Part shown: piece by piece, positions 11,097-35,684 of the stretch | Numbering within the stretch: position 1 is the stretch's first letter | Layout of the letters: each line of letters opens with the position of its first letter | DNA from: Oligoflexia bacterium | GTDB taxonomy: Bacteria; Bdellovibrionota_C; UBA2361; JBGSMV01 | Direction of reading: 5' to 3' | Length of the DNA: 64,000 nucleotides | Assembly: GCA_019694515.1 (NCBI GenBank) | Contig: JAIBBU010000010.1 | Span: 35,496 to 99,495, forward strand | Program-made: the position numbers and the translations under genes | The notes under the pieces: model-generated | Databases searched by the model: none | What the model was told of the DNA's origin: nothing | Seen by the model: the letters and a program-made list of their open reading frames with translations, nothing else

Positions 11097-11699
11097 ATGT
11101 ATCAAACTGCACCTAAAACTCGCCTGATCTTAGCCTCGGCTTCGCCGCGCCGGAGTCAACTTTTATCGGGAGTTGGCATCAATTATGAAATCATGGCGTC
11201 GGGCTGCGACGAAACACCGCTCGTAAACGAGACTGCTACTGATATGGTTAGACGCCTGGCGCTTGATAAGGCCCGCTTCGTCGCCCGTTCCCACCCCGAT
11301 GCCTGGGTAATCGGTGCGGATACGACAGTGGTGGTGGACGGCGAGATCCTCGGCAAGCCCAACAATCATGCTGATGCCGTTCGCATGCTGTCGCTGCTGC
11401 AGGGCCGCGAGCATCAGGTCGCGGGAGCGTTTGGAATCGTGTGTGCGGCCAGGGCACTGGAGGAGGTTGAGGTGCATACTTCAACAGTTCATATGGTGAA
11501 TCTCGGCAAGGAGGCAGTAGCAGCGTATGTTCACACCGGCGAGCCGATGGACAAGGCGGGGGCCTACGCTATTCAGGGAGTCGGCGCCGGACTGATCGAG
11601 GCGGTCGACGGCTCATATACCAATGTCGTGGGACTTAATCTCTCAGCGCTGCTTAAGAGACTTCTAAAGCTGCAGGTGATTAAGCTTGCTATCCCATGA
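11097..11699 (+). CDS. maf: Maf-like nucleoside triphosphate pyrophosphatase (septum formation protein Maf)
   Basis: LILASASPRRSQLL ... GADTTVVVDGEILGKP ... AYAIQG are Maf family signatures. Confidence 0.9.
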   Translation: MYQTAPKTRLILASASPRRSQLLSGVGINYEIMASGCDETPLVNETATDMVRRLALDKARFVARSHPDAWVIGADTTVVVDGEILGKPNNHADAVRMLSLLQGREHQVAGAFGIVCAARALEEVEVHTSTVHMVNLGKEAVAAYVHTGEPMDKAGAYAIQGVGAGLIEAVDGSYTNVVGLNLSALLKRLLKLQVIKLAIP

Positions 11700-12418
11700 G
11701 CGCATCAGAGCTTAAGGAAGCCTTAGCAGCTGTAGATCATAAAATCCAAGCCGCATGCCGGAAATCGGGAAGAAATCGCGATGAAGTTACCTTGGTCGCG
11801 GTTTCAAAAAGGCAGCCGCTCCAGAAAATGAAGCTCTATGAGCTAGCAGCCGCGGAACTGGAAATCCCGGTGGTCTTCGGCGAGAGCTATGTGCAGGAAC
11901 TTAGCAAGAAAAGCGCGGCGCTGGATGCGACTAGCAATTGTCATCTGATCGGTCCGCTGCAGAAGAATAAGGTGCGTGCCGCCGTGCAGGTAGCAGCGAT
12001 GATTGAAAGTATCCATACCCCGGAGATCGCAGCACTCGTCAGCTCCGAAGCGCTGCGTTTGAGAAAAACGATGCCCGTACTACTTCAGGTCAATATTTCC
12101 CGAGATCCCGCTAAGAGTGGCTTCGCGGAAGAGCAATTGATCAATTTTCTGCGTGCGGAAAGCGCGCAGCTCGGGGGTCTTGAAATTCGGGGTTTGATGA
12201 CGATTACCGAACTGTACACCGAGCCCAGCGCAGCATTGCCGGATTTTAAGGCGCTCAAAGCGCTAGGTGACGCTCTTTCCGGACAGGGATTGCTGCCCCA
12301 GAGTTTTGATTTGAGTATGGGCATGTCGGCAGATTATGTTTTTGCGATCGAAGCCGGCGCTACGCTGATTCGGGTCGGGACGGCGCTTTTCGGCGACCGC
12401 GAGAAGAGATTTGAGTAG
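11696..12418 (+). CDS. yggS: YggS-family PLP-binding protein (PLP homeostasis protein)
   Basis: VTLVAVSKRQP ... IGPLQKNKVRAAV ... LSMGMSADY..AIEAGATLIRVGTALFG. Overlaps maf by 4 nt. Confidence 0.9.
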   Translation: MSASELKEALAAVDHKIQAACRKSGRNRDEVTLVAVSKRQPLQKMKLYELAAAELEIPVVFGESYVQELSKKSAALDATSNCHLIGPLQKNKVRAAVQVAAMIESIHTPEIAALVSSEALRLRKTMPVLLQVNISRDPAKSGFAEEQLINFLRAESAQLGGLEIRGLMTITELYTEPSAALPDFKALKALGDALSGQGLLPQSFDLSMGMSADYVFAIEAGATLIRVGTALFGDREKRFE

Positions 12419-12473
12419 CATGTCGGCGCTGGTTAAGATACTCGAGCCATCTCAATTGTTAAGGTAGTTGCAT

Positions 12474-16546: not shown

Positions 16547-16727
16547 GTGAAAGACGCAATCACCCCCACGGTTGCATTGTACAAGTTACGGAACTCGAGA
16601 ACAAAATTCCGCTCATGCCAAGGCAGGCCTTCGCGTTGCTCGCAATGGCAGGGCTGAGCGCACGGAAAAACTAATAGCTGCTCCGAGAAGGCACACCAGA
16701 ACGATTTAATGCCAGGGCCTTAGCGCT

Positions 16728-17141: not shown

Positions 17142-17195
17142 CGCTAATTACCTCCATCCGCTAAAAGCTTCGTATCTAAACCCAAATAAAAAAAT

Positions 17196-17600: not shown

Positions 17601-17743
17601 CTATGCAGCTCTAATTCGGCATCTCATTAGTAAGCATGTTTGCCGATAATATCAATGCTTACTTTTTATTTGAGGCATCAGATCTTTTTCTTCAGCGTGT
17701 TCAAGCGCTGTAATAGACTCAAGTTGCCACAAAGGTTTTATCT

Positions 17744-19039: not shown

Positions 19040-19065
19040 CCCGAGAGCAGCTCCTCGCCGCATCA

Positions 19066-21147: not shown

Positions 21148-21149
21148 CT

Positions 21150-22181
21150 TCAGTGCTCCATTTTTGAGTTGTGATTAGCTAAACCATATCTATTCAATTT
21201 CTTCCAAAGCGTGACGCGGCTAAATCCCAACATTGCCGCTGCTTTGGTTTTGTTGCCGTCACTGGCTTCCAGTGCGTCAAGAATCGCGAGCTTCTCTTCC
21301 TCTACCGGGATAGCGTGACTAGATCGATAGTGCTGGCGTTCGACGCGCTGACTGAGGCCGGCAGGGTCGGAATGACTAAGTAAGTCGGGCAGGTGCTGCA
21401 TCTCGATTGCGCCGCTCTTTGCGATCACAAAGGCGTGCTCAAGTGCATTCTCAAGCTCGCGCACGTTGCCGGGCCATTGGTATTGCTCGAAGAGCTTTGC
21501 TACTTCGTCTGATAATCCGGTGATCGATTTTGAAAATCGCTGATTGAATTTAGAGATGAAATAGCTGCTTAGAGCCAGGATATCCTGCGAGCGGTTGCGC
21601 AATGGGGGAATACGTAAGGGGAATACATTGATGCGGTAATAGAAATCCTCCCGAATTCTTCCTCGCGCCACGAGATCTTCGAGGTGGCGATTGGTGGCGG
21701 TAATGATCCGAATGTCGGCCTTGCGGGTCAGCGCTTCGCCTACGCGAGAATATTCGTGGGATTGCAGGAGCCGGAGTAATTTTACCTGCATGTCCGGAGA
21801 GACATCTCCAATCTCATCCAGGAATATCGTACCGTCATGTGCATATTCCACGATGCCCTGCTGATCACGATGTGCATCAGTGAACGCGCCCTTAACGTGG
21901 CCGAATAGCGTGCTCTCCAGCAGGTTATGAGGGATGGTGGAGCAGTTGACCTTGGCGAATCGCCCCGCGCGCCTACCGCTCAAGTGGTGGATGGCATCAG
22001 CTACGAGTTCTTTGCCGACCCCGCTCTCGCCGTAGATGTGCACAGTTACATCCGTCGGCGCGACTAACCCGATTAATTCATAAAGATGCATCATTAAGGG
22101 GTGTGATCCGATCAGACGGTGAAATCTGTACGGAGGCTGGGACTCAAGACTGGCGGGTTGGTCGGGCATAACGGGCGGCAT
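21150..22181 (-). CDS. Sigma-54-dependent transcriptional activator of PspF/HrpS type (AAA+ sigma-54 interaction domain plus C-terminal Fis-type HTH; no N-terminal sensor or receiver domain)
   Basis: Walker A GESGVGKE, the ESTLFGHVKGAFTDA (GAFTGA-type) loop, Walker B IFLDEIGD, and the C-terminal HTH LGFSRVTLWKKLNRYGL. The protein begins about 25 residues before the AAA+ core. Confidence 0.9.
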   Translation of the reverse strand: MPPVMPDQPASLESQPPYRFHRLIGSHPLMMHLYELIGLVAPTDVTVHIYGESGVGKELVADAIHHLSGRRAGRFAKVNCSTIPHNLLESTLFGHVKGAFTDAHRDQQGIVEYAHDGTIFLDEIGDVSPDMQVKLLRLLQSHEYSRVGEALTRKADIRIITATNRHLEDLVARGRIREDFYYRINVFPLRIPPLRNRSQDILALSSYFISKFNQRFSKSITGLSDEVAKLFEQYQWPGNVRELENALEHAFVIAKSGAIEMQHLPDLLSHSDPAGLSQRVERQHYRSSHAIPVEEEKLAILDALEASDGNKTKAAAMLGFSRVTLWKKLNRYGLANHNSKMEH

Positions 22182-22476
22182 CCTTTACCACGCAGGAACC
22201 CAAAAGTGTTAACCAGCTAACCCGGCCGGGGCGGCGAGAGAACGCTCATCGGGCCTCTCCTATGTAATCATGGCCGGCTACAAATTCAAATAAAAACCGC
22301 GAAATATTTGAGTAATATTGAAACACCAAACGATGCGTCGAGAGGTTGTAAGCGGCGCGTTAACAGCAAACGCTAACTGCCGCGGCCGAACTGAAGTTCA
22401 GGTTTACACTCAAGATTTAATGAACTGATCTTTATGCTCAATTCGATGGTGAGTAAGAAATTCCTGAATGGGCGGC

Positions 22477-22492
22477 TGGCATGCAGATTGCT
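22477..22492 (+). promoter_or_regulatory. Sigma-54 (RpoN) -24/-12 promoter TGGCAT-N5-TTGCT upstream of the Hsp20 gene
   Basis: CTGGCATGCAGATTGCT matches the TGGCAC-N5-TTGCW consensus at the invariant GG and GC with correct spacing, about 85 nt upstream of the hsp20 ATG. The activator gene is transcribed divergently. An AT-rich tract (about 22285..22330) lies in between, consistent with an IHF-type bend site. Confidence 0.6.
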
Positions 22493-22576
22493 GTCCTAGA
22501 CCACGGACTCTGGGTGGTTCGTCCTGGGGCTAATCCTAGAATCCTATTTTAATCCATCTTTGGATTGGAGAATCGT

Positions 22577-23023
22577 ATGGAATTCTTCCCCAGCATTCTT
22601 CCGGAAACTCGTTCGACATTGTTTGCTCAGCCATTCCGCGCGCTAGAGGAGGCCGTGAATAAAATGTGGCCGGCCTTTAATGCTCTGGGCCAGGTGGTGC
22701 CGCGAACATTTGCATTAGACGTGGAAGAACTGCCTGACAAGTATCGGATTAAGGCCGATTTGCCAGGAATTGATCGAAAATGTGTCCATATTTCATTCGA
22801 GCAGCCAATGCTGACGATTGAAATTGAAGTCAATAAAGAGGAGGAAAGAAAAGAGGGCACTTTCTTGGCTCGCGAGAGACTGTACAGCACAACCGCGCGT
22901 TCGATTCCGCTGCCCCTCGCAGATGCGAAAGGCAATGTCGATGCGGTGATGAAGGAAGGAGTGCTAACAATTACTGTCCCCAAGAGCCACGAGAAGCAGA
23001 CCAAGACGATTGAAATACACTAG
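22577..23023 (+). CDS. Hsp20/alpha-crystallin family small heat-shock protein
   Basis: Alpha-crystallin domain (DVEELPDKYRIKADLPGIDRKCVHISFEQPMLTIEIE...GVLTITVPK). GGAGAA lies 5 nt upstream of the ATG at 22577. Confidence 0.85.
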   Translation: MEFFPSILPETRSTLFAQPFRALEEAVNKMWPAFNALGQVVPRTFALDVEELPDKYRIKADLPGIDRKCVHISFEQPMLTIEIEVNKEEERKEGTFLARERLYSTTARSIPLPLADAKGNVDAVMKEGVLTITVPKSHEKQTKTIEIH

Positions 23024-23165
23024 CGTTCAATTAAGATGCTGCTGAGGATCTTGCAGCCTGGAGCCCCCGCCCGCTTGGGGCTCGCTCCGGCGGCGCAAGA
23101 ATTCATAGCGCAGCGGTCATCGCTTCACAGATGACTGGATCTGAAGGGGCCACTTCAGATCGAAG

Positions 23166-23197
23166 GCGCGTCTAGTCCAGGCGCGCCTTTTTTTCTA
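23166..23197 (+). terminator. Rho-independent terminator after hsp20 (GGCGCGtctagtccagGCGCGCC + TTTTTTT)
   Basis: GC-rich 6 to 7-bp stem followed by a 7-T run. A second small hairpin CTGAAGgggccaCTTCAG sits just upstream. Confidence 0.6.
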
Positions 23198-23345
23198 CCC
23201 TTTTTGGAGGCTTGTAAGCTTGAAAGACGACCCTGTGGGGCACGCTCCGAGTCCGAGACAGAAGCAGTCTTATCGCTAACGAGTCCCCAAGCAGGGTAGA
23301 ACAGGTTATGGACGGCCTGCGCCATTCCGCGTAAAGATCGCGCGC

Positions 23346-23726
23346 ATGACTCTGCAGATGCTGATTGCTACCTGTGCCTGGCTGCTGCTGGTGCTCGGGT
23401 ATTGCCAACGCTACCAGCGCAGCCGGCATGTGCCCCTAGTCTTAGCCGGCATCGGGACCGATCTCGCCTTGGTACTTTACCTCCAAATCACCCGGGGTGC
23501 GGTGCAAAAGGCTCTGGCTTTTGATATGACGCTGCTAAATCAGCTGCATGTCGGATTTTCAACCGCGGCGTTGCTGCTTTACTTTCCGATCTTATACCTA
23601 GGCTTTCGTCTCGTGCGCGGGGATAAATCAGCCGCGCTTCGAATTACGCACGCGCGACTTGCTCGAGTTTGTCTGGGCCTTCGTACCGCCGGGTTTATTC
23701 TGATGTTCTCGATGTGGAAGCATTGA
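23346..23726 (+). CDS. Possible small membrane protein (hypothetical)
   Basis: 126-aa ORF with three hydrophobic segments and no clear RBS. Low confidence that it is expressed. Confidence 0.3.
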   Translation: MTLQMLIATCAWLLLVLGYCQRYQRSRHVPLVLAGIGTDLALVLYLQITRGAVQKALAFDMTLLNQLHVGFSTAALLLYFPILYLGFRLVRGDKSAALRITHARLARVCLGLRTAGFILMFSMWKH

Positions 23727-24031
23727 GGCCCAACTCCCGCTCCTCTTTACCGTGCGCAGAATCTTTTTCCGATTTCGTGGAGCGGGTGTCGAGGCAAGCT
23801 TTTTATGCAAGAGCGTGGGAAAGTCTCCAGCCCTGCGTTCTTAGTGTAAAGCTGGCTTGTTATTGCCCATTACGAGCATAAATTTTGCTGCGGTACAGCG
23901 TCTATCCTATTTTATTAGGACCGCGCTGAGCTAGAGCATTGAACCGTTGCTAAGTGCTGCCTGATCTCGCATTCTGCACTACTGCTATATCAAGTTCCGC
24001 AGGCTGCACTAAGCTTGGGAGGAGAATTTTA

Positions 24032-24676
24032 ATGGATTATTTAAGAATTTACTTCTTACGTCACGGGCAAACCGAGCAGAGCCGCGCCACACTTTTTTGC
24101 GGCTCTGGTCTTAATCCGCCGTTGACCGCCGAGGGGCTGGAGATGGCGAATTGTGTTGCAGCAGCACACGCCAAGACCGCATGGCAGGCGATCTATAGCA
24201 GTCCGCTGCTTCGCACCGTTAGCACAGCCCAGATCGTGGCGGCGCCGCACGGCTTGCAGCCGATCCTCGACGATGGACTTAAGGAGATCGGTTTCGGGGC
24301 CTGGGAAGGCAAGACCGCCGAAGCGGTTAACACGGAATTCCATGATGACTACATCCGCTGGATGGCCGATCCGGCCTGGTGCCCTCCGACTGGCGGAGAG
24401 ACGGCGACAGTAATCGCTTCCCGTGCGCTGCCCGTAATTGAAAGAATTAGAGCAGAGATACCAAAAGGTGAAGTATTGGTCGTTTCACATAAAGCTACGA
24501 TTCGAATCCTATTATGTCAGCTGCTGGGAATCGATGTGGGACGTTTTCGTTTTCGGCTTGATTGTCCGGTTTGTTCAATCAGTGTAGTGGACTTCACCAA
24601 GCAAGGGCCCTGGCTGCGGGTGCTGGCGGACCGCTCACATCTGACGGCCCGGCTGCGTGAGCTGCCGGGAACATAG
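24032..24676 (+). CDS. Histidine phosphatase superfamily protein (phosphoglycerate-mutase-like / CobC-like)
   Basis: Begins MDYLRIYFLRHGQTE (RHG catalytic motif). GGAGGAG RBS precedes it. The conserved H in VVSHKATIRIL is present. Confidence 0.8.
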   Translation: MDYLRIYFLRHGQTEQSRATLFCGSGLNPPLTAEGLEMANCVAAAHAKTAWQAIYSSPLLRTVSTAQIVAAPHGLQPILDDGLKEIGFGAWEGKTAEAVNTEFHDDYIRWMADPAWCPPTGGETATVIASRALPVIERIRAEIPKGEVLVVSHKATIRILLCQLLGIDVGRFRFRLDCPVCSISVVDFTKQGPWLRVLADRSHLTARLRELPGT

Positions 24677-24920
24677 CAGGCGCACTTACCACCCAGGCTC
24701 AAGTCCGGGCGCATAGGCCGGAGTTCCGATATTGACCAGGAGACCGTCGCGTTCTTTGGGCGGTGCCGTGATCGGCGTGGGCTGAATCCCTGCTAATGCT
24801 TGAATTAGGGCACGAAGCTCAATGCAATATGCTTCTGTCAGGAGCGCTAGCCCCGCAAAATAATTTGTTGCACAGCGCGCCGAAACGCCGGCCGCAAACC
24901 GCTGGATTTCTACTTAGTGA

Positions 24921-24990
24921 GGGATTGCTTCGCTCCGCTCGCAATGACGATACCGCGAGGCAGGCTTTCGCTGGTTTCGCAACGAAAGGG
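24921..24990. repeat. MITE-like repeat, copy C (half element: GGGATTGCTTCGCTCCGCTCGCAATGAC plus the GGCAGGCTTTCGCT module)
   Basis: Read directly. It lies in a 530-bp intergenic region. Confidence 0.7.
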
Positions 24991-25209
24991 TCGCGCATTT
25001 AGGCAGGTATGGCGTCCTAAAAATAGGGAACATCCACAGTGGGAGATGTTCCTTATGCCGCGGACAGAATTACCCCCGGTTTCGATTCAGCAAACCGAGA
25101 TCAGTCTCCGACCGCAGAGCGCCGTTAGCCAGCAGCCGAAATCAATGACGCAGTAGATTCGATCTTTGAATTGTGGAACCTCTACCGCAGCGGCCAGCGC
25201 AGCGCTGCT

Positions 25210-26982
25210 TTACAGTCGGCCTTGATCTTTGCTCTCCCCTCGCAAAATCTGCAGCGCTTTGCGGGTAAGAAGATCTAGGAGATCGTTAGAACTACCGGGA
25301 TTACCAGGCTGTTGGCGCTCCTCGGCGGCTCCGAGAAGAATTCGCGCATGCATCCGTGCCCAGCGGATCTTCTCGGGGGTATGGCAATAGTCGAGCGCGC
25401 TCTGTAGTTCGCTGTTTTCTTCCAGCCGAATTGCGCCTTTTGCCAATTTCTCACGATCGCAATTTTCCCAGGCGCGAAGAATTCTATAGGTTAAAAGATC
25501 CTCAACCTGACGGGGACTGAGGCCGGCGCGCTGCTGCTGGATCTGTTCCGTAAGTTCTCGGTAATTTACCCCCGGCCCATCAAAGAAGATCAGGATGTCA
25601 TTCAAGAGCGTTTCGCGGCGCATGGCGCGGTACTCGTCAGAATCGATTCCCGGCAGATCGGTCTCTTTAATGCGTGAGGGCAGGCTTGCTTCCTCCTGCA
25701 GCACTGATTGCCCGGCAGTTGAGGTTGCTGTATTGCGGCCGCCGCTGCTCTGTGTCGCTGTTGCTGTGGGCCTTGCACTGCGGAGGCCAGCAGCATCGCC
25801 TCGATTTGGATCGCCGCCGGTCGCCTGATCTGGAGATGGATCGCCGGATTCTTGTTGCCGCTGTCTGCGGCGGAGCAGAAATAACAAGCCTAAGGGAATC
25901 GGATAGAGAGCTTTGGAGTCGTGATCGACATGTCCCTGCACCGTCGCATCGACTCGGCGTTTCGAGTAAATTATTTCTGCTAACTCTCGATTCAGCTCGG
26001 GATCCTTAATGCGACCAGCGCAATAGGCTTTAACCATAGTGAAGATGCGCTCGTCCTCGGTTGCGCCGCTGTAGTCCATGGAGAGTTCAGTCAGGCGGCC
26101 CCAATCCTCGTCCGAGAAACCCAGCTCCCTCCCAATCACTCGAACCCGCATGGGGCTGCTCTCTTGCAGCGCATTCATGATGCGCTTCGCGGCATCGTCC
26201 CCCCGCAGAGCCCCCAGGTCTTCGTTCTCTGGGTCAGATTCCGACAAGCTCTCAGGGCCCAAAGCGGCTGGCCCTTCTGGTGACGCGTTTCCTACGGCGG
26301 TAAGCGAATCTACGGTTGAGTCATGAAGAAGTTCTGGTCCATGCGCGCGGCGATAAGCAGCCTTAGCCCAGTCGAAGCCATGCAGTTCATCTGCAACCTG
26401 GTGCAGCAGCTGTGCGCGCACGTCGGCGGCAAAGCGGTCGTGATCTTCGGGGCGCAGTGAGCGCGCCAGATCAAACTGACGTGCGTATTCGTAGGGAATT
26501 GTGAATGTACTTTCATAGCGCTGGGTCTTATGCGAAACGGTAACCAAGCTTATCGGACAAACTGCGCTCCAGAGATCGTGAAGTGCGACATGGTAGCGCC
26601 CGGTTGCAGGATCGCGCTCGATGATGTTGACGTTGATCTCTGGGAATTTGGCCTTGGCTCCCGCCGTCGAATCCAATCCTGCGGATTCCGGAAGCGTCAG
26701 CTCAACTCCCCATTTGGTCTTGAGGTCGACAAGCGAGGGGCCTGAAGCGTGAGCACGCAGCGGTGAATCGGCAGCGTGGGCAGCTATGATTGCAGGGTCC
26801 GCCTCCGCGGTTTTCGGGTGAGCTATAGCAGCAAGTAAACCAACGATCTTGGCGATGGCGCGGAAGCGCTCCGCGATGGATTGCGGCGGACCGCCAATTA
26901 CATTTAGATCTGGTGCGGCCTCGGTGTTTGAAATGAGCCGAGCTGTATCAGAACTGGGATCTTTAGGGCCATGGCCTGCCAT
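25210..26982 (-). CDS. Large hypothetical protein (about 590 aa) with a Gly/Ser/Thr/Pro-rich disordered segment and one central hydrophobic stretch; no recognised domain
   Basis: Start moved to the ATG at 26982 (GAAAGGAGctccgcATGGCAGGCCATGGC, a strong RBS). It is transcribed divergently from the RiPP precursor gene. Confidence 0.6.
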   Translation of the reverse strand: MAGHGPKDPSSDTARLISNTEAAPDLNVIGGPPQSIAERFRAIAKIVGLLAAIAHPKTAEADPAIIAAHAADSPLRAHASGPSLVDLKTKWGVELTLPESAGLDSTAGAKAKFPEINVNIIERDPATGRYHVALHDLWSAVCPISLVTVSHKTQRYESTFTIPYEYARQFDLARSLRPEDHDRFAADVRAQLLHQVADELHGFDWAKAAYRRAHGPELLHDSTVDSLTAVGNASPEGPAALGPESLSESDPENEDLGALRGDDAAKRIMNALQESSPMRVRVIGRELGFSDEDWGRLTELSMDYSGATEDERIFTMVKAYCAGRIKDPELNRELAEIIYSKRRVDATVQGHVDHDSKALYPIPLGLLFLLRRRQRQQESGDPSPDQATGGDPNRGDAAGLRSARPTATATQSSGGRNTATSTAGQSVLQEEASLPSRIKETDLPGIDSDEYRAMRRETLLNDILIFFDGPGVNYRELTEQIQQQRAGLSPRQVEDLLTYRILRAWENCDREKLAKGAIRLEENSELQSALDYCHTPEKIRWARMHARILLGAAEERQQPGNPGSSNDLLDLLTRKALQILRGESKDQGRL

Positions 26983-27252
26983 GCGGAGCTCCTTTCGTGA
27001 GACTGAACTAGGGAACGCTGCGGGCCACTCATCCAAAGTGGTCGCTTTTAGACGCTGCCTACCTTCGTTATGGAGAACCGCAGCTCTCCGTAGCATAAGG
27101 GCGCAGGGGGATTTACCTGGGGATCCCATAAAAAATCGCGCCGTATTTTCATTTTGCAGTGCCCGACAATGTGTTAGTTAAACGGCTTAACATTTGCTCC
27201 GGGAACTGAAACAAGGTTTGCGGGGCCAGCTCAAAACCTTTTTGGAGGCTTA

Positions 27253-27642
27253 ATGAAGAAGAACCGTAATTTATCGAACCTTTCGAAAGCATCACTGGCC
27301 CTCGGAGCAGTGGCGGGTCTAAGGCTAGCAGACGCCCACGCTATGCAGAGCTTTGACTATCACATGCTGGGTAGCGGCGCTGTCGTCCGGGGCGAGCTGC
27401 TGGAAAAGGCTGCTAATCCCGTTTACGCGGCGCATGAGGACGCGGAGGACGGCGAAGCCGGGTCCGGAAAGACGGTTGAAGGAAACTGCGGCGAAGGCAA
27501 GGAAAAATCGGCGGAAGCTAACTGCGGCGAAGGGAAGGATAAGGCCAAGAAGGAGCATGAGGCCGATCAGCATAAAGATAAGTCGAAGGATGCCGAAGGC
27601 AAGTGCGGTGAGGGCAAATGCGGCGAAGAGATGGATATGTAG
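27253..27642 (+). CDS. HvfA/bufferin-like RiPP precursor: small Sec-signal-peptide protein with Cys repeats NCGEGK, NCGEGK and KCGEGKCGEE
   Basis: 129 aa. Signal peptide MKKNRNLSNLSKASLALGAVAGLRLADAHA (AxA cleavage site). The mature part is Lys/Glu/Asp-rich with four Cys, all in (E)GKCG / NCGEG context. GGAGG RBS. It lies immediately upstream of the DUF692 and DUF2063 genes. Confidence 0.7.
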   Translation: MKKNRNLSNLSKASLALGAVAGLRLADAHAMQSFDYHMLGSGAVVRGELLEKAANPVYAAHEDAEDGEAGSGKTVEGNCGEGKEKSAEANCGEGKDKAKKEHEADQHKDKSKDAEGKCGEGKCGEEMDM

Positions 27643-27681
27643 CCTTTATCTGAGTCTCGGGGAGGCCTCCTCCCTGAGACA

Positions 27682-28530
27682 TTGGGAGAAATCATGCCAG
27701 CCGTAAGCGGAGTAGGGATTGGACTGCGTCGTGATTTGGCCGATGAAATCATTGCGCTAGAGAACAGTCCGATTCGTTTTCTGGAATGCGCCCCGGAGAA
27801 CTGGATGGGGGTCGGTGGATATTGGGGGAAAAAGCTGCGGCAAGCTGCTGAACATTATCCCTTCAACTGTCACGGACTGTCGCTCTCTCTGGGGAGCCCC
27901 GAGCCGCTCGATCATATCTTCTTGCAGCGGCTAAAGAAATTCTTTGCCGACTTTCCGGTGCAGATCTACTCCGAGCATCTGAGTTTCACCAAATGCGACA
28001 ACGCTCATACCTATGAGCTGCTGCCGATGCCCTTTCGTTCTGACGCGGTGCGTCATGTAGCGGGCCGCATTCGAGAGGTGCAAGAGATTTTGGAACGGCA
28101 GATCGCGATTGAAAATGTTTCTTACTACACCCCGGTAGCTCCCGAGCTGGGCGAGGCTGAATTCATCGCGGCGATTCTCAAAGAAGCCGACTGCAAGCTG
28201 CTGCTGGATGTGAACAATGTGTTCGTGAATGCCTTTAATCACGGCTATGATGCGCGCGGCTTCATCTCGGCCTTGCCCCTCGATCGTGTTGCTTACATCC
28301 ATATGGCGGGCCACGAGCAGCGCACTCCGGATCTGATTATTGATACGCATGGCGAGCCGATTATCGATCCGGTCTATGAACTTTTTGAGTGGACGATTGA
28401 GCGTTTACACCCCGTGCCGGTGCTCCTGGAGCGTGATTATAACTTCCCGGAGTTTCCGGATTTACTAGCAGAAGTTTCGAGGTTGCAAGCGATTGCTTCC
28501 AAAGTTTGGCACCAACAGGCGGCGGCTTAA
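27682..28530 (+). CDS. DUF692-family multinuclear non-heme iron oxidase (MNIO; MbnB/TglH/HvfB/BufB family RiPP maturase)
   Basis: GVGIGLRRDL, the SEHLSF motif, ENVSYY, LLLDVNNVFVNAFNHGYDA, IHMAGH and IDTHG are all hallmark DUF692 motifs in the correct order. Confidence 0.9.
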   Translation: MGEIMPAVSGVGIGLRRDLADEIIALENSPIRFLECAPENWMGVGGYWGKKLRQAAEHYPFNCHGLSLSLGSPEPLDHIFLQRLKKFFADFPVQIYSEHLSFTKCDNAHTYELLPMPFRSDAVRHVAGRIREVQEILERQIAIENVSYYTPVAPELGEAEFIAAILKEADCKLLLDVNNVFVNAFNHGYDARGFISALPLDRVAYIHMAGHEQRTPDLIIDTHGEPIIDPVYELFEWTIERLHPVPVLLERDYNFPEFPDLLAEVSRLQAIASKVWHQQAAA

Positions 28531-28532
28531 AA

Positions 28533-29294
28533 ATGGCGCTTGAAAAGAATACCACCGAAGTGATGCGTGAATTTGCGCAGTTTTGCCGCACTGGGGAGTA
28601 TCATCCGATCGCGGGGGTGCGGGACGATCGTGCCCAAGAGTATCGCCGTCTGGCATTCAATATCGTCGAGCACGCGTTGCGACGCGCATATCCTCTAACC
28701 GTCCGGGCGCTTGGAACGGAGTGGTCCGGGCTGATACAGCGCTTTTATGCCGAGTGGCCCCTGGTGAGTCCGGAGCTGTGGAAGATGCCGCGTCAGCTAT
28801 GTGATTTTGTCGGCGGCACGCAGTACGGTATGGCGACGGGGCGTCCCTGGCTTAATGACCTGCTACGTTTTGAGTGGTTGGAGATCGAGGTCTTCATGAT
28901 GGAGGATGTCGATCCTGGGGTGGTTAACGCCAAGGGGGATTTGGCCGGCCAGCCGGTAGTGCTGAATCAAGAGGTCGTTTTTTCGCGCTTTGAATATCCG
29001 GTCTTCAAAGTCGCAGCGGACCAGCTGACGGCACAGCAGGGCTGTTTTTTCCTGGCAACCTACCGTCATCCGCAAACACTAGAAGCTTGCTATACTGAGC
29101 TCTCGCTCTTATTCTTAAGGGTGCTTGAGATTCTGCAGATCCAGGAACTCTCCGGGAGTGCCGCGATCGAGCGAGCTGCTTCTGATTTGGGGATCGATCT
29201 GTCGGGCGGTGATGCGCGCCGCATGCTCGAGCTGCTCTCGGCTGCCCGGTCCGACGGTTTAATTTTAGGGGTAAGGAATGTTGATCTTCGCTAA
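28533..29294 (+). CDS. DUF2063-family partner protein of MNIO enzymes (MbnC/HvfC/BufC-like precursor-binding subunit)
   Basis: The start ATG lies 2 nt after the MNIO stop. DUF692 genes are characteristically followed by a DUF2063 gene. Sequence-level assignment is by context plus size, roughly 250 aa. Confidence 0.65.
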   Translation: MALEKNTTEVMREFAQFCRTGEYHPIAGVRDDRAQEYRRLAFNIVEHALRRAYPLTVRALGTEWSGLIQRFYAEWPLVSPELWKMPRQLCDFVGGTQYGMATGRPWLNDLLRFEWLEIEVFMMEDVDPGVVNAKGDLAGQPVVLNQEVVFSRFEYPVFKVAADQLTAQQGCFFLATYRHPQTLEACYTELSLLFLRVLEILQIQELSGSAAIERAASDLGIDLSGGDARRMLELLSAARSDGLILGVRNVDLR

Positions 29295-29628
29295 TTTGCT
29301 GCTGGCCATCGGCAAAGTTCTTGGAATGCTGCTCCAGATATTGCTTTATCTGGTGATTGCCCGTGCTATTATTTCCTGGGTCAACCCCGATCCTTATAAT
29401 CCGATCGTACGCTTTCTGCATTCATCGACCGATCCCTTTCTTCGACCGATTCGACGCTATGTACCATTGGTTGGCGGTGGCATCGATCTATCTCCGATCC
29501 TGTTGTTCGTGCTGATCATTTTCCTGCAATCCTTTTTGGTGCAAACCATGCTGGATTATTCGCTGTCGATCAGGAGCCGCTCGATTATGGTTCCGGCACC
29601 GGTAGCCGCCCCGGGATCTTTGACCTAG
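29278..29628 (+). CDS. YggT (Ycf19) family small membrane protein, translationally coupled to the DUF2063 gene
   Basis: ARAIISWVNPDPYNPIVRFLHSSTDPFLRPIRRYVPLVGGGIDLSPILLFVLIIFLQ matches the YggT consensus. It overlaps the upstream gene by 17 nt. Confidence 0.75.
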   Translation: MLIFANLLLAIGKVLGMLLQILLYLVIARAIISWVNPDPYNPIVRFLHSSTDPFLRPIRRYVPLVGGGIDLSPILLFVLIIFLQSFLVQTMLDYSLSIRSRSIMVPAPVAAPGSLT

Positions 29629-29707
29629 CGCTTAGCGGACGAGTTTTAAACCTTACACTTCAAGCATTTCGGCGCATATCCGTTGGGCTAATACAACGGA
29701 GAGTTAT

Positions 29708-30706
29708 ATGCAGCCCGAGACCGCCGTAGCACCTATACCAGATTCGCAAAATGTCTTTATCAGCGCCGCCGCGGGGGAAGAGGAAGTCTTAGCCGTCCCG
29801 CCTACCATAGACGGCCTCGATGTAAAGCGCTATCTAACCGAAATTGCGGGCCGTCACGGCCTGCTTGTCGATCCAGAGGTCGCGCTCAAAGAGACTGAGC
29901 GGCTCTTCAGTGCAATTGATCAGCCGATTGTGCGCGGAATTGTTTTGGAAGCGCTAGCACAGCGCAGTCCGGTACAATTTTATTGCCCGGCTGTTCGCGC
30001 CAAGTTTTTTGCCGCGCTTCAGCCGTATGCCGCAGATCCAGAGGTGCTGAATCTTGGAATTGAAACGCTGATGGGGGGCGATGAGCAGCCTGAGACAATT
30101 CAGGCTATCGAAAAAATCTTGAAGCAGGTCGATCTCTCCGAATTCCCGGCCTGCCAGGAGAAGTTGCATAATTGGCTGCTCCTTAATATCGCGCAGGCCC
30201 TGCCGGCGACTCTGCCTCCCACACTGGCAGCAGGATTTCGGGTAGCGGGTGGCGATGTCGAGGAGGGCGCGATCTCGAAGTCCCTGGTCGCTGCAGCTCT
30301 GCACTCTTACCGCCGCTTCCATGAGGAGACTGGATATGTGGAGGCGTTAAAGTGTCTCGGTACTCCGAAGTGCATGCGCACCTTAAGAGAAATGGCAGAG
30401 GAAACTATCTATCCCTATATGCATGAAAGCGGGCCTGCGCATCCTCCCGGCACATGCGAGACCGCGCTGCTTTTGGATATTGGTGCGGCGGTGACCGGAG
30501 GGGTCCTGGGCGGCGTTGCCACCTTTCACTTTGCATCACATCTCCCCTTCGCCGTCTTTCTTGGCGCGCTGGGTGGCCTAGTCGGCTTTACCCGTACGAG
30601 CGATTATCTGACCCATCGCTACATTATGGATCGGCCCACCAGAAAAGGACTAAATCCGGTGCAAAGCGCGAAAGCGCGCGAATTTTTGGAGAAGCCGGGA
30701 GATTAG
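29708..30706 (+). CDS. Hypothetical protein with a C-terminal double-TM/Gly-zipper segment (GAAVTGGVLGGVATFHFASHLPFAVFLGALGGLVG)
   Basis: 332-aa ORF with GGAGAG RBS. No recognised domain. Confidence 0.5.
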   Translation: MQPETAVAPIPDSQNVFISAAAGEEEVLAVPPTIDGLDVKRYLTEIAGRHGLLVDPEVALKETERLFSAIDQPIVRGIVLEALAQRSPVQFYCPAVRAKFFAALQPYAADPEVLNLGIETLMGGDEQPETIQAIEKILKQVDLSEFPACQEKLHNWLLLNIAQALPATLPPTLAAGFRVAGGDVEEGAISKSLVAAALHSYRRFHEETGYVEALKCLGTPKCMRTLREMAEETIYPYMHESGPAHPPGTCETALLLDIGAAVTGGVLGGVATFHFASHLPFAVFLGALGGLVGFTRTSDYLTHRYIMDRPTRKGLNPVQSAKAREFLEKPGD

Positions 30707-30760
30707 CCGCGGAATGGAGGTTGGAAACAGGGGCCTAGCCCGTTAAGCTGTGCTTAAGAT

Positions 30761-31942
30761 ATGACACAGCTAAAGCCGGTGCGTTTACGCCCGGCGCTTA
30801 TGAATTATGATTGGGGCAAGCGCGGCAGTAGTTCGCTTGCGGCCAAGCTTGCAGGGATTAAGACAGAAGATCCGGTAGCCGAGCTTTGGCTCGGCACCCA
30901 TGCAAAAGGTCCCGCCATAGCTGGTTCTGAGACTTTGGCCGAGTGGTTAGCACGCAGTCCGGAGCAGATCCTGGGCTCTGCCGTGCTTAGGAATTACGGC
31001 TCGACGCTGCCGTTCTTATTCAAAGTACTCTCAATTGCGGAGCCGCTCTCAATACAGCTGCATCCCAATCGAAAGCTGGCCGCGGAGCTGCACCTGCGCG
31101 ACCCCAAGCACTATCCGGATGGAAATCACAAACCCGAGATTGCAATTGCCCTGACCGAGATGCCGTTGCTCTACGGTCTGCGTTCATTTCACGATAGCGC
31201 AGAGCTGCTGTCACGGTTGCAGGCCTTGCAAGGTTTAGTCGGGGTGATTCTGCAGTTTGGCCCGGCCACCGCGCAGCATCGCGCCTTGGTGGAGAAGATC
31301 TTCGGGGCGGCTGCTACAGAACTAAAACCGATCTTAGATGCCGTGGCAGCAGAGTTGCGCAGCTGGGAGACCGGCAAGTTAAGGAAGGAAGATCTCCTGA
31401 TGATGCAGCTCCATGCTTTATACCCTGAGGGCGATCCGGGTGTGCTGGCTCCCTATCTGCTCAACTTCATCACTTTAAAACCCGGCCAAGCGATCTTTAC
31501 GGAGGCTCAGGTACCGCACGCCTACCTCGGCGGGGATTTGATCGAGTGTATGGCTAATTCAGATAACGTCGTGCGGGCGGGACTGACCCCGAAATTTAAG
31601 GATATCCCCACATTGCTGCAAATGTTGGACTTCTCTAAGGCCGGCGCACCGCCGCGCTTGATCGACGCGGAGCGACCGATCCGCGGAGTGGCGCGCTTCT
31701 CGGTTGCCGAGTGCCGGGAATTCTTGGTGGAGCAGCTGACCGGACCAGGAGACTTCGCACCATGCGGCAGCGGGTCGATCGAAATTCTGATTAGCGTGGA
31801 TGGAGTAGGGGAGTTGGCGGCGGGCGGCGAGGTATTTTCAATTAAATCCGGCGATGCGCTGGCTGTGCCGGCGCTGTGTGCTTACCAAATACGGTTAAGC
31901 GGCGGCGCTCTTTTTAGAGCTGCGGTGCCTACCGCAGCCTAG
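30761..31942 (+). CDS. manA: Mannose-6-phosphate isomerase, type I (PMI)
   Basis: LMNYDWGKRGSSSLAAKL ... LPFLFKVLSIAEPLSIQLHPN ... HKPEIAIALTE are PMI type I signatures. Confidence 0.8.
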   Translation: MTQLKPVRLRPALMNYDWGKRGSSSLAAKLAGIKTEDPVAELWLGTHAKGPAIAGSETLAEWLARSPEQILGSAVLRNYGSTLPFLFKVLSIAEPLSIQLHPNRKLAAELHLRDPKHYPDGNHKPEIAIALTEMPLLYGLRSFHDSAELLSRLQALQGLVGVILQFGPATAQHRALVEKIFGAAATELKPILDAVAAELRSWETGKLRKEDLLMMQLHALYPEGDPGVLAPYLLNFITLKPGQAIFTEAQVPHAYLGGDLIECMANSDNVVRAGLTPKFKDIPTLLQMLDFSKAGAPPRLIDAERPIRGVARFSVAECREFLVEQLTGPGDFAPCGSGSIEILISVDGVGELAAGGEVFSIKSGDALAVPALCAYQIRLSGGALFRAAVPTAA

Positions 31943-32072
31943 CCCGCAGATAGTTATTTCTGTGGCAATAATGAATCGGTCAACAGTTCTCTGATGCGGA
32001 TTGGGAATTCGGAGACGGGCACGGAAACCAGTCTCGGAATCGGGAGGAATTCCCTCCTCGCAGTACTAACAC

Positions 32073-33284
32073 CTACAGCACCCGCGATAGATCGGAAATT
32101 CGCGCCAGGTCGGCGCAGATATTTTTCTGGTGCGCCTCGCTTGTGCCGCCGCCGATCTCCAAGAGCTTGGCGTCGCGCCAGAGTCGCTCTACGACGTAAG
32201 CACCAACGTAACCATAGCCGCCCAGAACCTGAATCGCCCGCTCGGCAATCTGTTTGCCGATGCGGCTCGCAAAAAGCTTCACGCCATCGGAGTCCAGCCG
32301 TTGTCCGGCTTTATGCAGGTCGATCTTTCTAGCGGTGTTATAAACGTATGCTCGAGCAGCTTGATATTCAGAGTAACTTTCTGCAATCAGGCGTTGCACC
32401 TGGCCGAATCCCGTGAGTTTCTTACCAAAGGCTTCTCGCTCATTGGCATAGGTTACCATCACTTCAATTGAGCGCCGCGCAATTCCCAAACTCATCGCCG
32501 CTAATCCCAACCGCTCGATCTCCAAATTCCGCATCATATGGGTCAACGATTCACCCTCTCGACCCACCAAGTTCTGCAGCGGAACGCTGCAATTGTCGAA
32601 GCACAGTTCAGCCGTATTAGAAGCACGCATGCCGAGCTTGTCCGTAATCTTTTGTCCAACGGAGAAGCCGCTGAACCCGCGTTCGATGATGAATGTGGAG
32701 ATGCTGCGATCTTCTGAACTGGCGCCGTCCCGGGCGTAAAGCAGCAGCACATCGCAGGGAGTTTTCTTGTCATCAACGGTGCCGTTGGTGATCCACATCT
32801 TTCTGCCATTCAGCACATATCCGTCTTTTTGTTTTTGCGCTGTGGTAGTCATCCCCAGGACGTCGGTGCCGACGCCCGGTTCTGAGAGCCCCATTGCTCC
32901 GATCCATTCGCCGCTGCAAAGTTTAGGCAGATAGCGCCGCTTTTGTTCCTCCGAAGCATTAGCCGCGATGTTGTTGGCGCAAAGCAGGGCGTGCGCCAGA
33001 AATGCCAAGCAAAAACCGGGATCAGACGCGGAAAGCTCTTCATGCACAATGACCGCCGCCAGCGCGTCGAGTCCGGCGCCGCCATATGTTTCCGGAACGG
33101 TTATGCCGAGCAGTCCCAGTCCGCCAAGGTGCTTGAAAAGTTCGGTGTTAAAATACTCTTTACGATCGCTGCTGAGGGCTTGTGGCTCGACCTCTTCGCG
33201 GGTGAAGTTTCGGACAGTCGACCGCAGCATGCGGAACTCTTCGCTGGGATTAAATAGGTCGAGGTTTTTTAGATGCGCATCCAT
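32073..33284 (-). CDS. Acyl-CoA dehydrogenase (isovaleryl/short-branched-chain type)
   Basis: GAMGLSEPGVGTDV, YVLNGRKMWITNG, and the C-terminal LGGYGY..E..ERLWRDAKL. The ATG at 33284 has AAGGTG 6 nt upstream and is preferred over the GTG at 33293. Confidence 0.9.
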   Translation of the reverse strand: MDAHLKNLDLFNPSEEFRMLRSTVRNFTREEVEPQALSSDRKEYFNTELFKHLGGLGLLGITVPETYGGAGLDALAAVIVHEELSASDPGFCLAFLAHALLCANNIAANASEEQKRRYLPKLCSGEWIGAMGLSEPGVGTDVLGMTTTAQKQKDGYVLNGRKMWITNGTVDDKKTPCDVLLLYARDGASSEDRSISTFIIERGFSGFSVGQKITDKLGMRASNTAELCFDNCSVPLQNLVGREGESLTHMMRNLEIERLGLAAMSLGIARRSIEVMVTYANEREAFGKKLTGFGQVQRLIAESYSEYQAARAYVYNTARKIDLHKAGQRLDSDGVKLFASRIGKQIAERAIQVLGGYGYVGAYVVERLWRDAKLLEIGGGTSEAHQKNICADLARISDLSRVL

Positions 33285-33432: not shown

Positions 33433-35253
33433 TCAGTTGATTTGCGGAAGTGGATCGGGAATCTTGGTGGGAATTGTAGTCGTCGAGGTATACTTCTTCC
33501 ACATTTGCGCAAAGTTACCCTGTTTGGCCAGCAGCTCGCTCAGGTTGCCCTGCTCGATGATCTCGCCCTGAGCGAAAACGTAGATCCGATCGAACATTCC
33601 CAAAAGATGCAGTTTGTGGATCGAGGAAACGACACAGCGATCTTTGAAATGCGCTAAGAGCGCCTCGTAAATCAACACTTCGTTTTGGCTGTCGACGCTA
33701 CTCGTAGGCTCATCCAGTAAAATTATATCGCTATCTTTGGCGGAGAATACGCCGCGCGCTAATGCCAGCCGCTGCTTTTCACCGCCGCTCATGTTGATGC
33801 CTTTCTGAGCGATGTTAGTTTCCAGTCCGAAGGGCATGCGCCCCAGAACCGGTTCAAAGCGCGCCAGCTTAATGGCCTCCAGGATCTCGGCCTCGGGGGT
33901 TTCGACACCAAATGTGATGTTAAAGCGCAAAGTATCGGCGAATATCTCGGGTTCTTGCGGAATCAAGGTGGTGTGGCGCGCCAGATGTAAGAGCTTGTTT
34001 TCCATCTCTGCCCCGTCGCAGGTCACGCTGACCCGCTTGGTGAACTGCAGGCCGCGCAAAACATTCATCATGGTGGTCTTGCCGCTGCCGCTCTCCCCGA
34101 CAAAGGCGATGCGGCTGCCGCGCTTCAGATCGATCGTGACATCTTTTAATTGATGTACACGATTTGTCGGGTCTTCGTAGGTGAAACTAAGGTTATTGAT
34201 CTTAACCTCTTTCCAGCCTTCGGGGAGAAATGAGTTGCTGCTCGCTTTGCGGAAATGCCGGTAGCTGTTGTGAATGGATTCCGCACTTTGCACATCTGCG
34301 GAATAACGCACAATCGCGCTGTATTTCCCGGCGAAGTCAAAGAACGATCCGCCGATACGGCGCAGATACTCAAACAGCGTGAAAAAGGTTCCGGAGAGCA
34401 GGACCTGTCCGCTGCCCACCGTCGACCATGCATACCAGCTCAAAGCTGCCACGATCGTAATCGTCATGATCATTGTGCCGACAAACCACTTGGCCTCGCT
34501 CATGATCACATTCTTCTTATAGAGCGGGAGTGCGTCCAGCATGCGGCGGGCCACTTCGCTGATCACTCGGATTTCGAGCCGCAGCGTAATTACGGTGACG
34601 ATATTGGTGACATAGTCATGAATCGCTGAAGCAATGCGGTTTTCGAACAGATTGAGATCTTTGTATTGCTGGAAGAGCTTGCGGTCGATGGCGAAGATTA
34701 GTCCCAGTGCCACGATCGAGGAACACAGCGAGATTATGGCGGCCTGCGGAAGAAAGAAGAACAGGATTATGTGTGAACCAACCAGACGAATTAAGGTGTA
34801 GACCAATTCAAAGCTGCTTGAGACGAAATCGCTGAGCGCACCGGAAGCGCGGTTGATGCGATCGATGTTTTCCCCGGAGTGATTATCTTTATGCCATTTT
34901 ACCGGCAGCTGCGTTACGAAGGTGAAGAGCTCCTTCTTATAGTTGGTACGGATGTTGAAAGCCAAGATGCGCTCGAGAACGCGCGCTGGACCATGGAAGC
35001 ACCAGAAGGTAATCTGCAGCGCCAGATATAAACCTAGGTAGTACATGACCTTGTGAAAAATCTGAGGGCTGCTGGAGCCTTCCTGCACAGTGTTCAGCAG
35101 CTGACCGATAATGTAGGGCTCGGAGAGGCTAAGACCCTGCGCAACGCAGAGCATCAGCACATACCCGATCAGGAGCTTGCGGTAGCCTGTGGCATACTCC
35201 CAAGCTTTGGCGATCAAACTGGCAACGGCACTTTGCGGCATCGAAAAGAACAA
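33433..35253 (-). CDS. ABC transporter, fused permease plus ATP-binding protein (exporter type, MsbA-like)
   Basis: N-terminal 6-TM domain. Walker A GESGSGKTT, signature LSGGEKQRLALAR, Walker B ILLDEPTSSVD. Confidence 0.9.
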   Translation of the reverse strand: MFFSMPQSAVASLIAKAWEYATGYRKLLIGYVLMLCVAQGLSLSEPYIIGQLLNTVQEGSSSPQIFHKVMYYLGLYLALQITFWCFHGPARVLERILAFNIRTNYKKELFTFVTQLPVKWHKDNHSGENIDRINRASGALSDFVSSSFELVYTLIRLVGSHIILFFFLPQAAIISLCSSIVALGLIFAIDRKLFQQYKDLNLFENRIASAIHDYVTNIVTVITLRLEIRVISEVARRMLDALPLYKKNVIMSEAKWFVGTMIMTITIVAALSWYAWSTVGSGQVLLSGTFFTLFEYLRRIGGSFFDFAGKYSAIVRYSADVQSAESIHNSYRHFRKASSNSFLPEGWKEVKINNLSFTYEDPTNRVHQLKDVTIDLKRGSRIAFVGESGSGKTTMMNVLRGLQFTKRVSVTCDGAEMENKLLHLARHTTLIPQEPEIFADTLRFNITFGVETPEAEILEAIKLARFEPVLGRMPFGLETNIAQKGINMSGGEKQRLALARGVFSAKDSDIILLDEPTSSVDSQNEVLIYEALLAHFKDRCVVSSIHKLHLLGMFDRIYVFAQGEIIEQGNLSELLAKQGNFAQMWKKYTSTTTIPTKIPDPLPQIN

Positions 35254-35339: not shown

Positions 35340-35684
35340 TTGCAATTTAGTCGATTGGTGGCAGCGGCTTCTAACACTTCGGAAAAATGGCTCTGGGAAG
35401 ATGGGGATAGGCTGTATATCGCACTTTCGGTCCAGCCGGGTGCGAAGCAAGACCGGGTCAAAGGGGTGCATGGTGAACGGCTGAAAATTGCGGTCAAGGC
35501 TCCGCCCCTGGAAGGGCGTGCTAATGAAGCGGTTGTGGAGTTTTTGGCGGCATTATTGCGGCTTCCAAAACGCGCGGTTTCAGTCCGCCATGGGGAAAGC
35601 AGCCGTGAGAAATTGATCGCTGTAACCGGTCTCACGCTGCAGGCAGCCGAACAGATCCTTAAGGCGCAATTTGAGTCAGTTTGA
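35340..35684 (+). CDS. DUF167 (YggU) family protein
   Basis: LSVQPGAKQDRVKGVHGERLKIAVKAPPLEGRANEAVVEFLAALLRLPKRAVSVRHGESSREKLIAV matches the YggU consensus. The exact start is uncertain. Confidence 0.7.
   Translation: MQFSRLVAAASNTSEKWLWEDGDRLYIALSVQPGAKQDRVKGVHGERLKIAVKAPPLEGRANEAVVEFLAALLRLPKRAVSVRHGESSREKLIAVTGLTLQAAEQILKAQFESV

Follow-up and report, generated by a model that had tools for sequence, protein, structure and literature searches.

A somewhat divergent hvfABC cluster without DoxX, next to yggT, in an Oligoflexia genome

Layout of the locus

We analysed a stretch of 64,000 nucleotides (nt) from an Oligoflexia bacterium (assembly GCA_019694515.1, contig JAIBBU010000010.1), referred to here as the window, in which three closely spaced genes encode a small cysteine-containing precursor peptide, an enzyme of the MNIO (DUF692) family and a DUF2063 protein. 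We hold with considerable confidence that this trio is a DoxX-less hvfABC cluster of the EGKCG or 'Lys-Cys' group (oxazolin / captophorin family), that the yggT gene behind it is a housekeeping gene and that the adjacent 332-aa and 590-aa proteins are lineage-specific. The analysis covers family membership, gene order, synteny and the presence or absence of genes across loci. The relevant genes are:

27253..27642, plus strand: gene of the HvfA-like precursor (129 aa; NF050137 match, GGAGG ribosome-binding site upstream)
27694..28530, plus strand: hvfB, MNIO (DUF692) maturase (278 aa; PF05114, NF003818; alternative TTG start at 27682)
28533..29294, plus strand: hvfC, DUF2063 / PME1 partner (253 aa; PF09836, PF22106, fold match)
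29278..29628, plus strand: yggT (116 aa, two transmembrane segments; PF02325)
29708..30706, plus strand: p332, 332-aa protein without a family, with one C-terminal hydrophobic segment
25210..26982, minus strand: p590, 590-aa protein without a family, in divergent orientation (length from public gene calls)

An open reading frame (ORF) scan recovers the four tightly packed plus-strand genes of the original prediction, and both of its junctions are as described. The stop codon TAA of hvfB ends at 28530 and the ATG of hvfC lies at 28533, leaving a gap of 2 nt, while the ATG of yggT at 29278 precedes the hvfC stop (29292-29294) and thus gives an overlap of 17 nt. The ORF of p332 begins about 80 nt after yggT. 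In GenBank the region carries locus tags K1X83_06955 to K1X83_06980 of a metagenome-assembled genome (MAG) from an uncultured Oligoflexia bacterium, and the proteins (MBX7137707-710) are currently named 'hypothetical', 'DUF692 domain-containing' and 'DNA-binding domain-containing'. The contig is also present in two ENA metagenome assemblies.

One coordinate needs adjustment. The MNIO gene had been placed at 27682..28530, and although its DUF692 identity stands, the likelier start is the ATG at 27694 (278 aa), which agrees with GenBank entry MBX7137709.1 and with the metagenome gene calls. The alternative TTG start at 27682 is covered by a hairpin (see below).

The maturase and its partner

The core of the original prediction, a precursor with an MNIO and a DUF2063 protein of the HvfA/bufferin kind, is supported by Pfam, NCBIfam and fold matches. 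HvfB matches the DUF692 family model PF05114 (MbnB_TglH_ChrH) with 332.5 bits against a cutoff of 25 (E 2e-99), and the DUF2063 and HvfA-family domain models are passed by the other two proteins; the E-values of these hidden Markov model (HMM) searches exclude a chance match. HvfB also passes the HvfB equivalog NF003818 (379.3 bits, cutoff 360), and it stays below the equivalog cutoffs of BufB (NF050167, 274.9 against 310), MbnB (TIGR04159, 39.2 against 325), ApyH and ChrH. The nearest solved structure is PDB 3BWW, a DUF692 protein of Histophilus somni (E 1e-71). Relatives of HvfB found in the genome scan reach at most 68% identity.

Aligned with 3BWW and 101 relatives, HvfB retains the motifs HGLS, EHLS, IEN, LDVNN, IHMAGH, DTHGE, LLERD and LRRD, and with them the metal-site motifs, an Arg-Arg pair and the Asp beside the LLER motif. 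Some of these roles are assigned by analogy with MbnB. According to Gadgil et al. (PMC12668002) the Asp is the proposed catalytic base and the Arg-Arg pair gates the substrate. At D247-Y248 (numbering of the 278-aa form; 28432-28437) HvfB carries Asp-Tyr; the usual pair among the 101 relatives is Asp-Phe (75 DF, against 23 DY and 3 DH). The same authors report that this Phe position tunes selectivity for the residues around the modified Cys, and the change might be linked to the N-C-G sites of the precursor discussed below.

The third protein matches PF09836 (HvfC_N, 42.2 bits against a cutoff of 27.2) and PF22106 (HvfC_C, 30.1 against 27), and the HvfC family NF050145 is its top and sole NCBIfam match. 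An AlphaFold model based on an alignment of six sequences (predicted local distance difference test, pLDDT, 83.7) was compared with known structures using Foldseek. It resembles TglI (8HCI_A, E 8e-7) and NGO1945 (3DEE, E 8e-7, TM-scores 0.59/0.73), both with probability 1.00; the fold match with MbnC is weak (E 0.14). A word-index search yields five relatives at 30-46% identity, and those in the metagenome scan reach at most 35%.

The precursor peptide

The precursor matches NF050137 (KCGExKCG_twice) in two stretches with 35.4 bits against a cutoff of 19.5. Against the HvfA equivalog NF050188 it reaches 24.4 bits (cutoff 95), and only the C-terminal repeat region aligns. No Pfam family is matched, DUF2282 included. 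By inspection the N-terminus has the features of a Sec signal peptide, with K2, K3, R5 and K12, a hydrophobic stretch at residues 13-23, and AHA followed by M31:

27253..27342, plus strand, residues 1-30: predicted signal peptide MKKNRNLSNLSKASLALGAVAGLRLADAHA (inspection and hydropathy scan; cleavage after AHA)

The orthologous precursor of L103, the closest related locus that we found, has the same ...DAHA ending, and Sec signal peptides are typical of this precursor family (PMC12452194, PMC11252979). After AHA the sequence continues with FDYHMLGSGAVVRGELL and then a Lys/Glu-rich tail. The mature peptide would be acidic (pI 4.8) and about 99 aa long.

The precursor contains four Cys (C79, C91, C118 and C123), all in x-Cys-Gly sites. 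Their contexts are EGNCGEGK, EANCGEGK and EGKCGEGKCGEE, where C118 and C123 form EGKCGEGKCG; C79 and C91 thus stand in N-C-G, and C118 and C123 in K-C-G, all of them within the Lys/Glu-rich tail. The EGKCG-type Cys repeats that had been noted from the sequence are therefore present as one canonical double EGKCG motif, whereas the other two sites are N-C-G half motifs and a run of EGKCG repeats is missing.

The hvfBC loci compared include 99 loci from two collection scans, L103 and the loci of the three nearest HvfC relatives. Absence of the precursor in relatives had been named as the outcome that would speak against the prediction; since an ORF search of 103 related loci shows a Cys-Gly-repeat ORF directly before hvfB in 91 of them, the precursor has instead proved to be conserved. 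Homologues at this position are also found by tblastn. These related precursors carry 3 to 10 Cys, and four Cys (25 precursors) are as frequent as any other number. K-C-G accounts for 404 and N-C-G for 7 of their 471 Cys-Gly sites; N-C-G sites recur in the precursors of L014, L033 and L084. Judged by these features the precursor is typical of its branch.

A second conserved element is the N-terminal motif LGSGAVVR (27367-27390). A motif of this LGSGxxxR type occurs in 82 of the 91 related precursors and does not align to the profile of the H. influenzae HvfA equivalog. In its longer form, F/L-x-Y-x-x-LGSGxE(V/L)R, it stands right after the signal peptide in precursors of Bacteroidota, Chlorobiota, Calditrichota and Bdellovibrionota (loci L001-L103; for example L004 4319-4690 and L103 3969-4409). 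It is missing from nine precursors, all of them short forms (L083, L087, L089-L091, L094, L097, L098 and L101). In this branch the motif may serve as the sequence that HvfC recognises.

Two further observations concern precursors of relatives. In the HvfA-like precursors of L083 (8765-9115) and L087 (4030-4350) a Cys follows straight after the hydrophobic segment (…ASLFASCNTE…), which suggests that some family members are processed in the manner of lipoproteins and not by signal peptidase I. Furthermore, the Calditrichaceae MAG CA_2019_TPIn_91 has two separate hvfABC loci (L003 and L006) with differing precursors of 8 and 7 Cys.

The yggT neighbour and the yggS-yggT backbone

The gene behind hvfC encodes an ordinary short YggT (PF02325, 82 bits), whose homologues at about 60% identity number in the thousands and are spread over many phyla. 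The original prediction regarded it, together with the flanking proteins, as the hallmark of an undescribed variant. Gene neighbourhoods lead to another view. Among about 104 other hvfBC loci a single one, the syntenic L103, has YggT behind hvfC. With the window YggT as tblastn query no match is obtained in the 99 loci of the two collection scans. An HMM built from 120 YggT homologues finds none in these 99 loci either, and none around the hvfC genes of the three nearest HvfC relatives. In the latter, hvfC is followed by DoxX (P0130, HvfC 39% identical), by a DoxD-like gene (P0131, 38%), or by a convergent ORF on a short contig, where the remaining 120 nt or so hold no yggT (P0129, 46%).

Conversely, the yggS-yggT pair occurs without hvf genes in four distinct relatives. 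The order is IMPDH-x-Maf-YggS-YggT in L104/L105 and L107/L108, YggS-YggT in L114 and YggS-YggT-Zn_ribbon in L115, whose YggT is the most similar to that of the window (68%). A further Oligoflexia genome (L102) has YggT-Zn_ribbon-RecO-GrpE-DnaK-DnaJ. L103, which was reached only via its YggT, combines both: IMPDH-x-Maf-YggS-[precursor-MNIO-HvfC]-YggT-...-ABC-Zn_ribbon-RecO-GrpE, with hvfABC exactly between yggS and yggT. The window retains the same backbone, including:

11696..12418, plus strand: yggS (pyridoxal phosphate-binding, Ala_racemase_N fold; PF01168, 67 bits), ancestrally the gene before yggT
35340..35684, plus strand: yggU (DUF167; PF02594, 85 bits)

Around these lie IMPDH (9048-10694), Maf (11097-11699, followed by YggS at 11696-12418) and an ABC transporter gene (33433-35253, minus strand; then YggU at 35340-35684), and the series continues with Zn_ribbon, RecO, GrpE, DnaK and DnaJ. 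Identities between the window and L103 are 77% for IMPDH, 50% for Maf, 44% for YggS, 78% for the ABC protein, 59% for Zn_ribbon, 44% for RecO and 54% for GrpE. The window YggS is 43-44% identical to those of L103 and L104, which share the order IMPDH-x-Maf-YggS. For the hvf proteins L103 is the best relative, with HvfB (69%) and precursor (43%) being the closest found, and an HvfC identity of 43%. Since window and L103 share this backbone, the adjacency of hvfC and yggT points to one insertion at the yggS-yggT junction, or to its loss in the other genomes.

The identities among YggTs fit this. Window and L103 share 62%, the window and hvf-less genomes 58-68%, and L103 and the hvf-less L104 71%; by these values the YggTs linked to hvf genes do not group apart from the others. 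The closest YggT to that of L103 (85%) is in L106, on a contig that begins 33 nt before yggT, so that no upstream neighbour can be read. We conclude that yggT is a housekeeping neighbour from the yggS-yggT(-yggU) series and probably not a component of the system for ribosomally synthesised and post-translationally modified peptides (RiPP). Because the junction is tight, yggT is probably read from the same transcript as hvfABC. Such co-transcription would be expected after insertion of a cassette into an operon and is no evidence of shared function.

The distance between yggS and yggT differs from that in relatives. There, 10-75 nt separate yggS from yggT, against about 15 kb in the window (12419-27252). 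This interval contains an M11-like peptidase, a CoA-transferase, an EF-G paralogue, a sigma-54 activator, HSP20, a histidine phosphatase and the 590-aa protein, and appears to be a hotspot where the conserved backbone has undergone insertion or rearrangement.

Absence of DoxX

The original prediction also contrasted YggT with the DoxX-type gene that such systems normally carry. With an HMM built from DoxX genes that follow hvfC, no DoxX is found in the 64-kb window or in L103. Among the 99 other loci DoxX stands directly after hvfC in 53 and within 10 kb in 59 (by HMM), leaving 40 without it. In the literature, a survey of more than 24,000 MNIO-PME1 loci reports DoxX for 67.8% of them, which leaves about 32% without it (Gadgil et al., PMC12668002), and Buf_EGKCG/oxazolin clusters combine RiPP, MNIO, DUF2063 and DoxX genes 'in various combinations' (Leprevost et al., PMC12452194). 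Absence of DoxX is a common, published arrangement, and DoxX is not a defining gene.

Weighing the readings

A number of points weigh against our reading of the locus as a DoxX-less hvfABC cluster beside a housekeeping yggT. HvfC reaches 99.5 bits with NF050145 where the cutoff is 142 (E 2.5e-28, profile positions 3-235 of 237), and its nearest relatives are 38-46% identical; for these two reasons we treat it as a divergent member. The N-C-G sites may be poorly modified, given that this context makes up so few of the Cys-Gly sites in relatives. The tight hvfC-yggT junction is kept in two DoxX-less genomes whose hvf proteins are 43-69% identical, and a kept junction would also look like this under a functional link. 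Finally, the analysis covers 64 kb of the genome, and a second yggT or a distant doxX may lie outside this stretch.

The main competing explanation is that an Oligoflexia clade has recruited YggT into the hvf system, where it would serve as a working membrane component instead of DoxX; hvfABC-yggT would then be a real four-gene variant. We consider this improbable. The two genes overlap by 17 nt in the window and lie 3 nt apart in L103, neither locus has DoxX, and the adjacency has outlived a divergence to 43% identity in both HvfC and HvfA. However, tblastn and our own HMM reveal no YggT within 10 kb in about 103 other hvfBC loci, which come from many phyla. The nearest HvfC relatives continue with DoxX or DoxD-like genes or show no yggT in the roughly 120 nt of contig that remain, the closest YggT homologues stand behind yggS without hvf genes, and the hvf-linked YggTs form no clade. 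With the synteny of the window and L103, a single insertion followed by descent suffices. In addition, we found no paper combining MNIO with YggT in the literature searched, and YggT/PF02325 is absent from the text of the supplementary files of two landscape papers.

A related proposal, on which we place very little weight, is that YggT was co-opted in a small Oligoflexia clade, that of the window and L103, as membrane partner of a DoxX-less captophorin system, where it might for example couple export of the modified peptide or copper hand-off at the inner membrane. If true, hvfABC-yggT would be a functional four-gene unit and not an accident of insertion.

The flanking proteins

The 590-aa and 332-aa proteins had been listed as part of the accessory repertoire. 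Neither has a Pfam or NCBIfam match, and both are absent from all related hvfBC loci, L103 included, so this part of the proposal is not retained. A word-index search of 5.8 billion proteins retrieves p332 only, and a full HMMER search of 1.84 billion representatives yields six distant relatives of about 443 aa; the one context of these that was examined has no hvf genes or yggT. The 90% cluster of p590 contains only copies from the same organism. Both proteins are lineage-specific neighbours and not part of the hvf system. The nearest relative of p332 (L113 2413-3744, ENA ERZ28613422 scaffold_31293; 443 aa, 33% identical) lies amid unannotated genes, and its metagenome sample also yielded one copy of the window's contig. 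The p332 family is small, uncharacterised and specific to an environment or lineage.

Comparison with characterised systems

The locus most resembles HvfABC/oxazolin of nontypeable Haemophilus influenzae (Manley et al. 2024, PMC11252979). Common to both are a precursor with KCGEGKCG (the signal peptide being a prediction in the window), an HvfB-type MNIO that passes the equivalog cutoff, and a DUF2063 partner gene with a RiPP recognition element (RRE) right behind it; conversion of Cys to 5-thiooxazole and Cu(I) binding would be expected here as well. The window precursor is nonetheless no orthologue of H. influenzae HvfA (NTHI1441; NF050188 24 against 95). Its N-region differs, with LGSGxxxR and without the Cys38/Cys43 disulfide, and it has four Cys (two in N-C-G) instead of eight. 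Moreover, DoxX (HvfX) is missing, HvfC is divergent and the host belongs to Oligoflexia, not Pasteurellaceae.

At the level of the group, the Buf_EGKCG/oxazolin clusters (Leprevost et al. 2025, PMC12452194) correspond to the 'Lys-Cys' captophorins, such as fontiphorin and gonophorin (Gadgil et al. 2025, PMC12668002). The window shares their gene trio, their motif class and, in the MNIO, the Arg-Arg pair and catalytic Asp. It differs in having few repeats, not of the 17-residue repeat / beta-helix type, in the Asp-Tyr of HvfB where Asp-Phe is usual (shared by 23 of 101 relatives) and in the position of the cluster upstream of yggT. Loci of Bdellovibrionota/Oligoflexia have already been counted in the published dataset (Gadgil et al., PMC12668002). 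The cluster is a new, somewhat divergent member of a known, very widespread family.

Other systems are further away. Bufferins are of the Buf1 (DUF2282) and Buf2 (6/12Cys) types and go with BufB/BufC/DoxX; the window precursor has no DUF2282 match, and HvfB fails the BufB equivalog (275 against 310). Methanobactin MbnABC also uses an MNIO and a partner to turn Cys of a ribosomal peptide into a copper ligand, but the window MNIO scores 39 bits against the MbnB cutoff of 325 and HvfC shows a weak fold match to MbnC (E 0.14). In addition, MbnABC has a leader peptide that is not a Sec signal, makes oxazolone/thioamide groups and yields a secreted chalkophore for copper uptake.

Regulatory elements, composition and mobility

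The spacer between hvfA and hvfB contains one structural element:

27655..27679, plus strand: hairpin in the hvfA-hvfB spacer (11-bp stem, 3-nt loop, no T-run)

Folding of the surrounding 65 nt (27636-27700) gives -26 kcal/mol, with a z-score of -2.8 relative to shuffled sequences. A possible role is that of an attenuator or stabiliser through which the ratio of precursor to enzyme is set. The orthologous spacer of L103 lacks the hairpin, which is thus not conserved.

A candidate sigma-54 promoter of hvfA, CGGCTTAACATTTGCT at 27183-27198, shows the GG-N10-GC spacing of such promoters and has 3 mismatches; the number of sites with 3 mismatches (287) is no higher than chance predicts (285), and the candidate was rejected. 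Scanning 26800-32100 for sigma-70 promoters and terminators gave counts at or below shuffle expectation, so that the scan is uninformative on the limits of the operon. Separately, the best sigma-54 match in the listed part of the window is TGGCATGCAGATTGCT at 22477-22492 (plus strand, 1 mismatch). It lies about 70 nt upstream of an HSP20 gene (22565-23023), and a sigma-54 activator gene adjoins in divergent orientation (21150-22181, minus strand), an arrangement that suggests sigma-54 control of hsp20.

A search for direct or inverted repeats on either side, as would mark a mobile cassette, found only internal ones of 36 nt and 15 nt in the precursor gene. The GC content of hvfABC (0.551) is near that of the window (0.539) and therefore gives no sign of recent transfer.

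Proposed mechanism

For chemistry, export and copper binding, as for the co-transcription mentioned above, we reason by homology with characterised members. HvfA would be made with a Sec signal peptide and bound by HvfC in the cytoplasm, with the LGSGxxxR motif as a possible recognition site. HvfC would enable the mixed-valent diiron state of HvfB (bioRxiv 10.64898/2026.07.17.739211), which with O2 would convert the Cys of x-Cys-Gly into 5-thiooxazole, with a loss of 4 Da each, at up to four sites (PMC12668002; mass data in PMC11252979). The original prediction still counted oxazolone/thioamide among the groups made by such maturases; for HvfA this is outdated, the modification having been revised to 5-thiooxazole (PMC12668002; bioRxiv 10.64898/2026.07.17.739211).

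The peptide would then be exported by Sec, with the signal cut after AHA30, and the acidic mature peptide of about 99 aa would sequester Cu(I) in the periplasm. Four heterocycles may bind about 2 Cu, or build the intermolecular networks proposed for EGKCG peptides. The product is probably a periplasmic peptide that carries up to four 5-thiooxazoles and buffers copper. This agrees with the original prediction, since the family is expected to make Cys-modified copper binders of the periplasm.

It might be argued that the cluster type is known but that the product has a role other than copper buffering, such as binding of another metal or protection from oxidative stress, or that modification is confined to the C-terminal KCGEGKCG pair. 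Fusions seen in some bufferins hint at other metals, mercury among them, and DoxX at other stresses (PMC12452194); with FonBC, modification of some non-canonical 5-mers was incomplete (PMC12668002), and N-C-G sites are rare in relatives. On the other hand, 5-thiooxazoles and Cu binding are common to all MNIO-PME1 products that have been characterised (PMC12668002), and the presence of N-C-G in the precursors of L014, L033 and L084 suggests that such sites are used. We regard this explanation as improbable.

Conclusions

The significance of the locus is mostly one of annotation: its genes can be renamed as HvfA-family precursor, HvfB-family MNIO maturase and HvfC-like partner. As an Oligoflexia example with a minimal four-Cys precursor that includes two N-C-G sites, it is a possible compact test substrate for site selectivity. 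The lesson for gene neighbourhoods is that a tight overlap alone is no evidence of shared function. Occupied and empty yggS-yggT sites together provide a clean natural example of the gain or loss of an hvfABC cassette inside a housekeeping operon.

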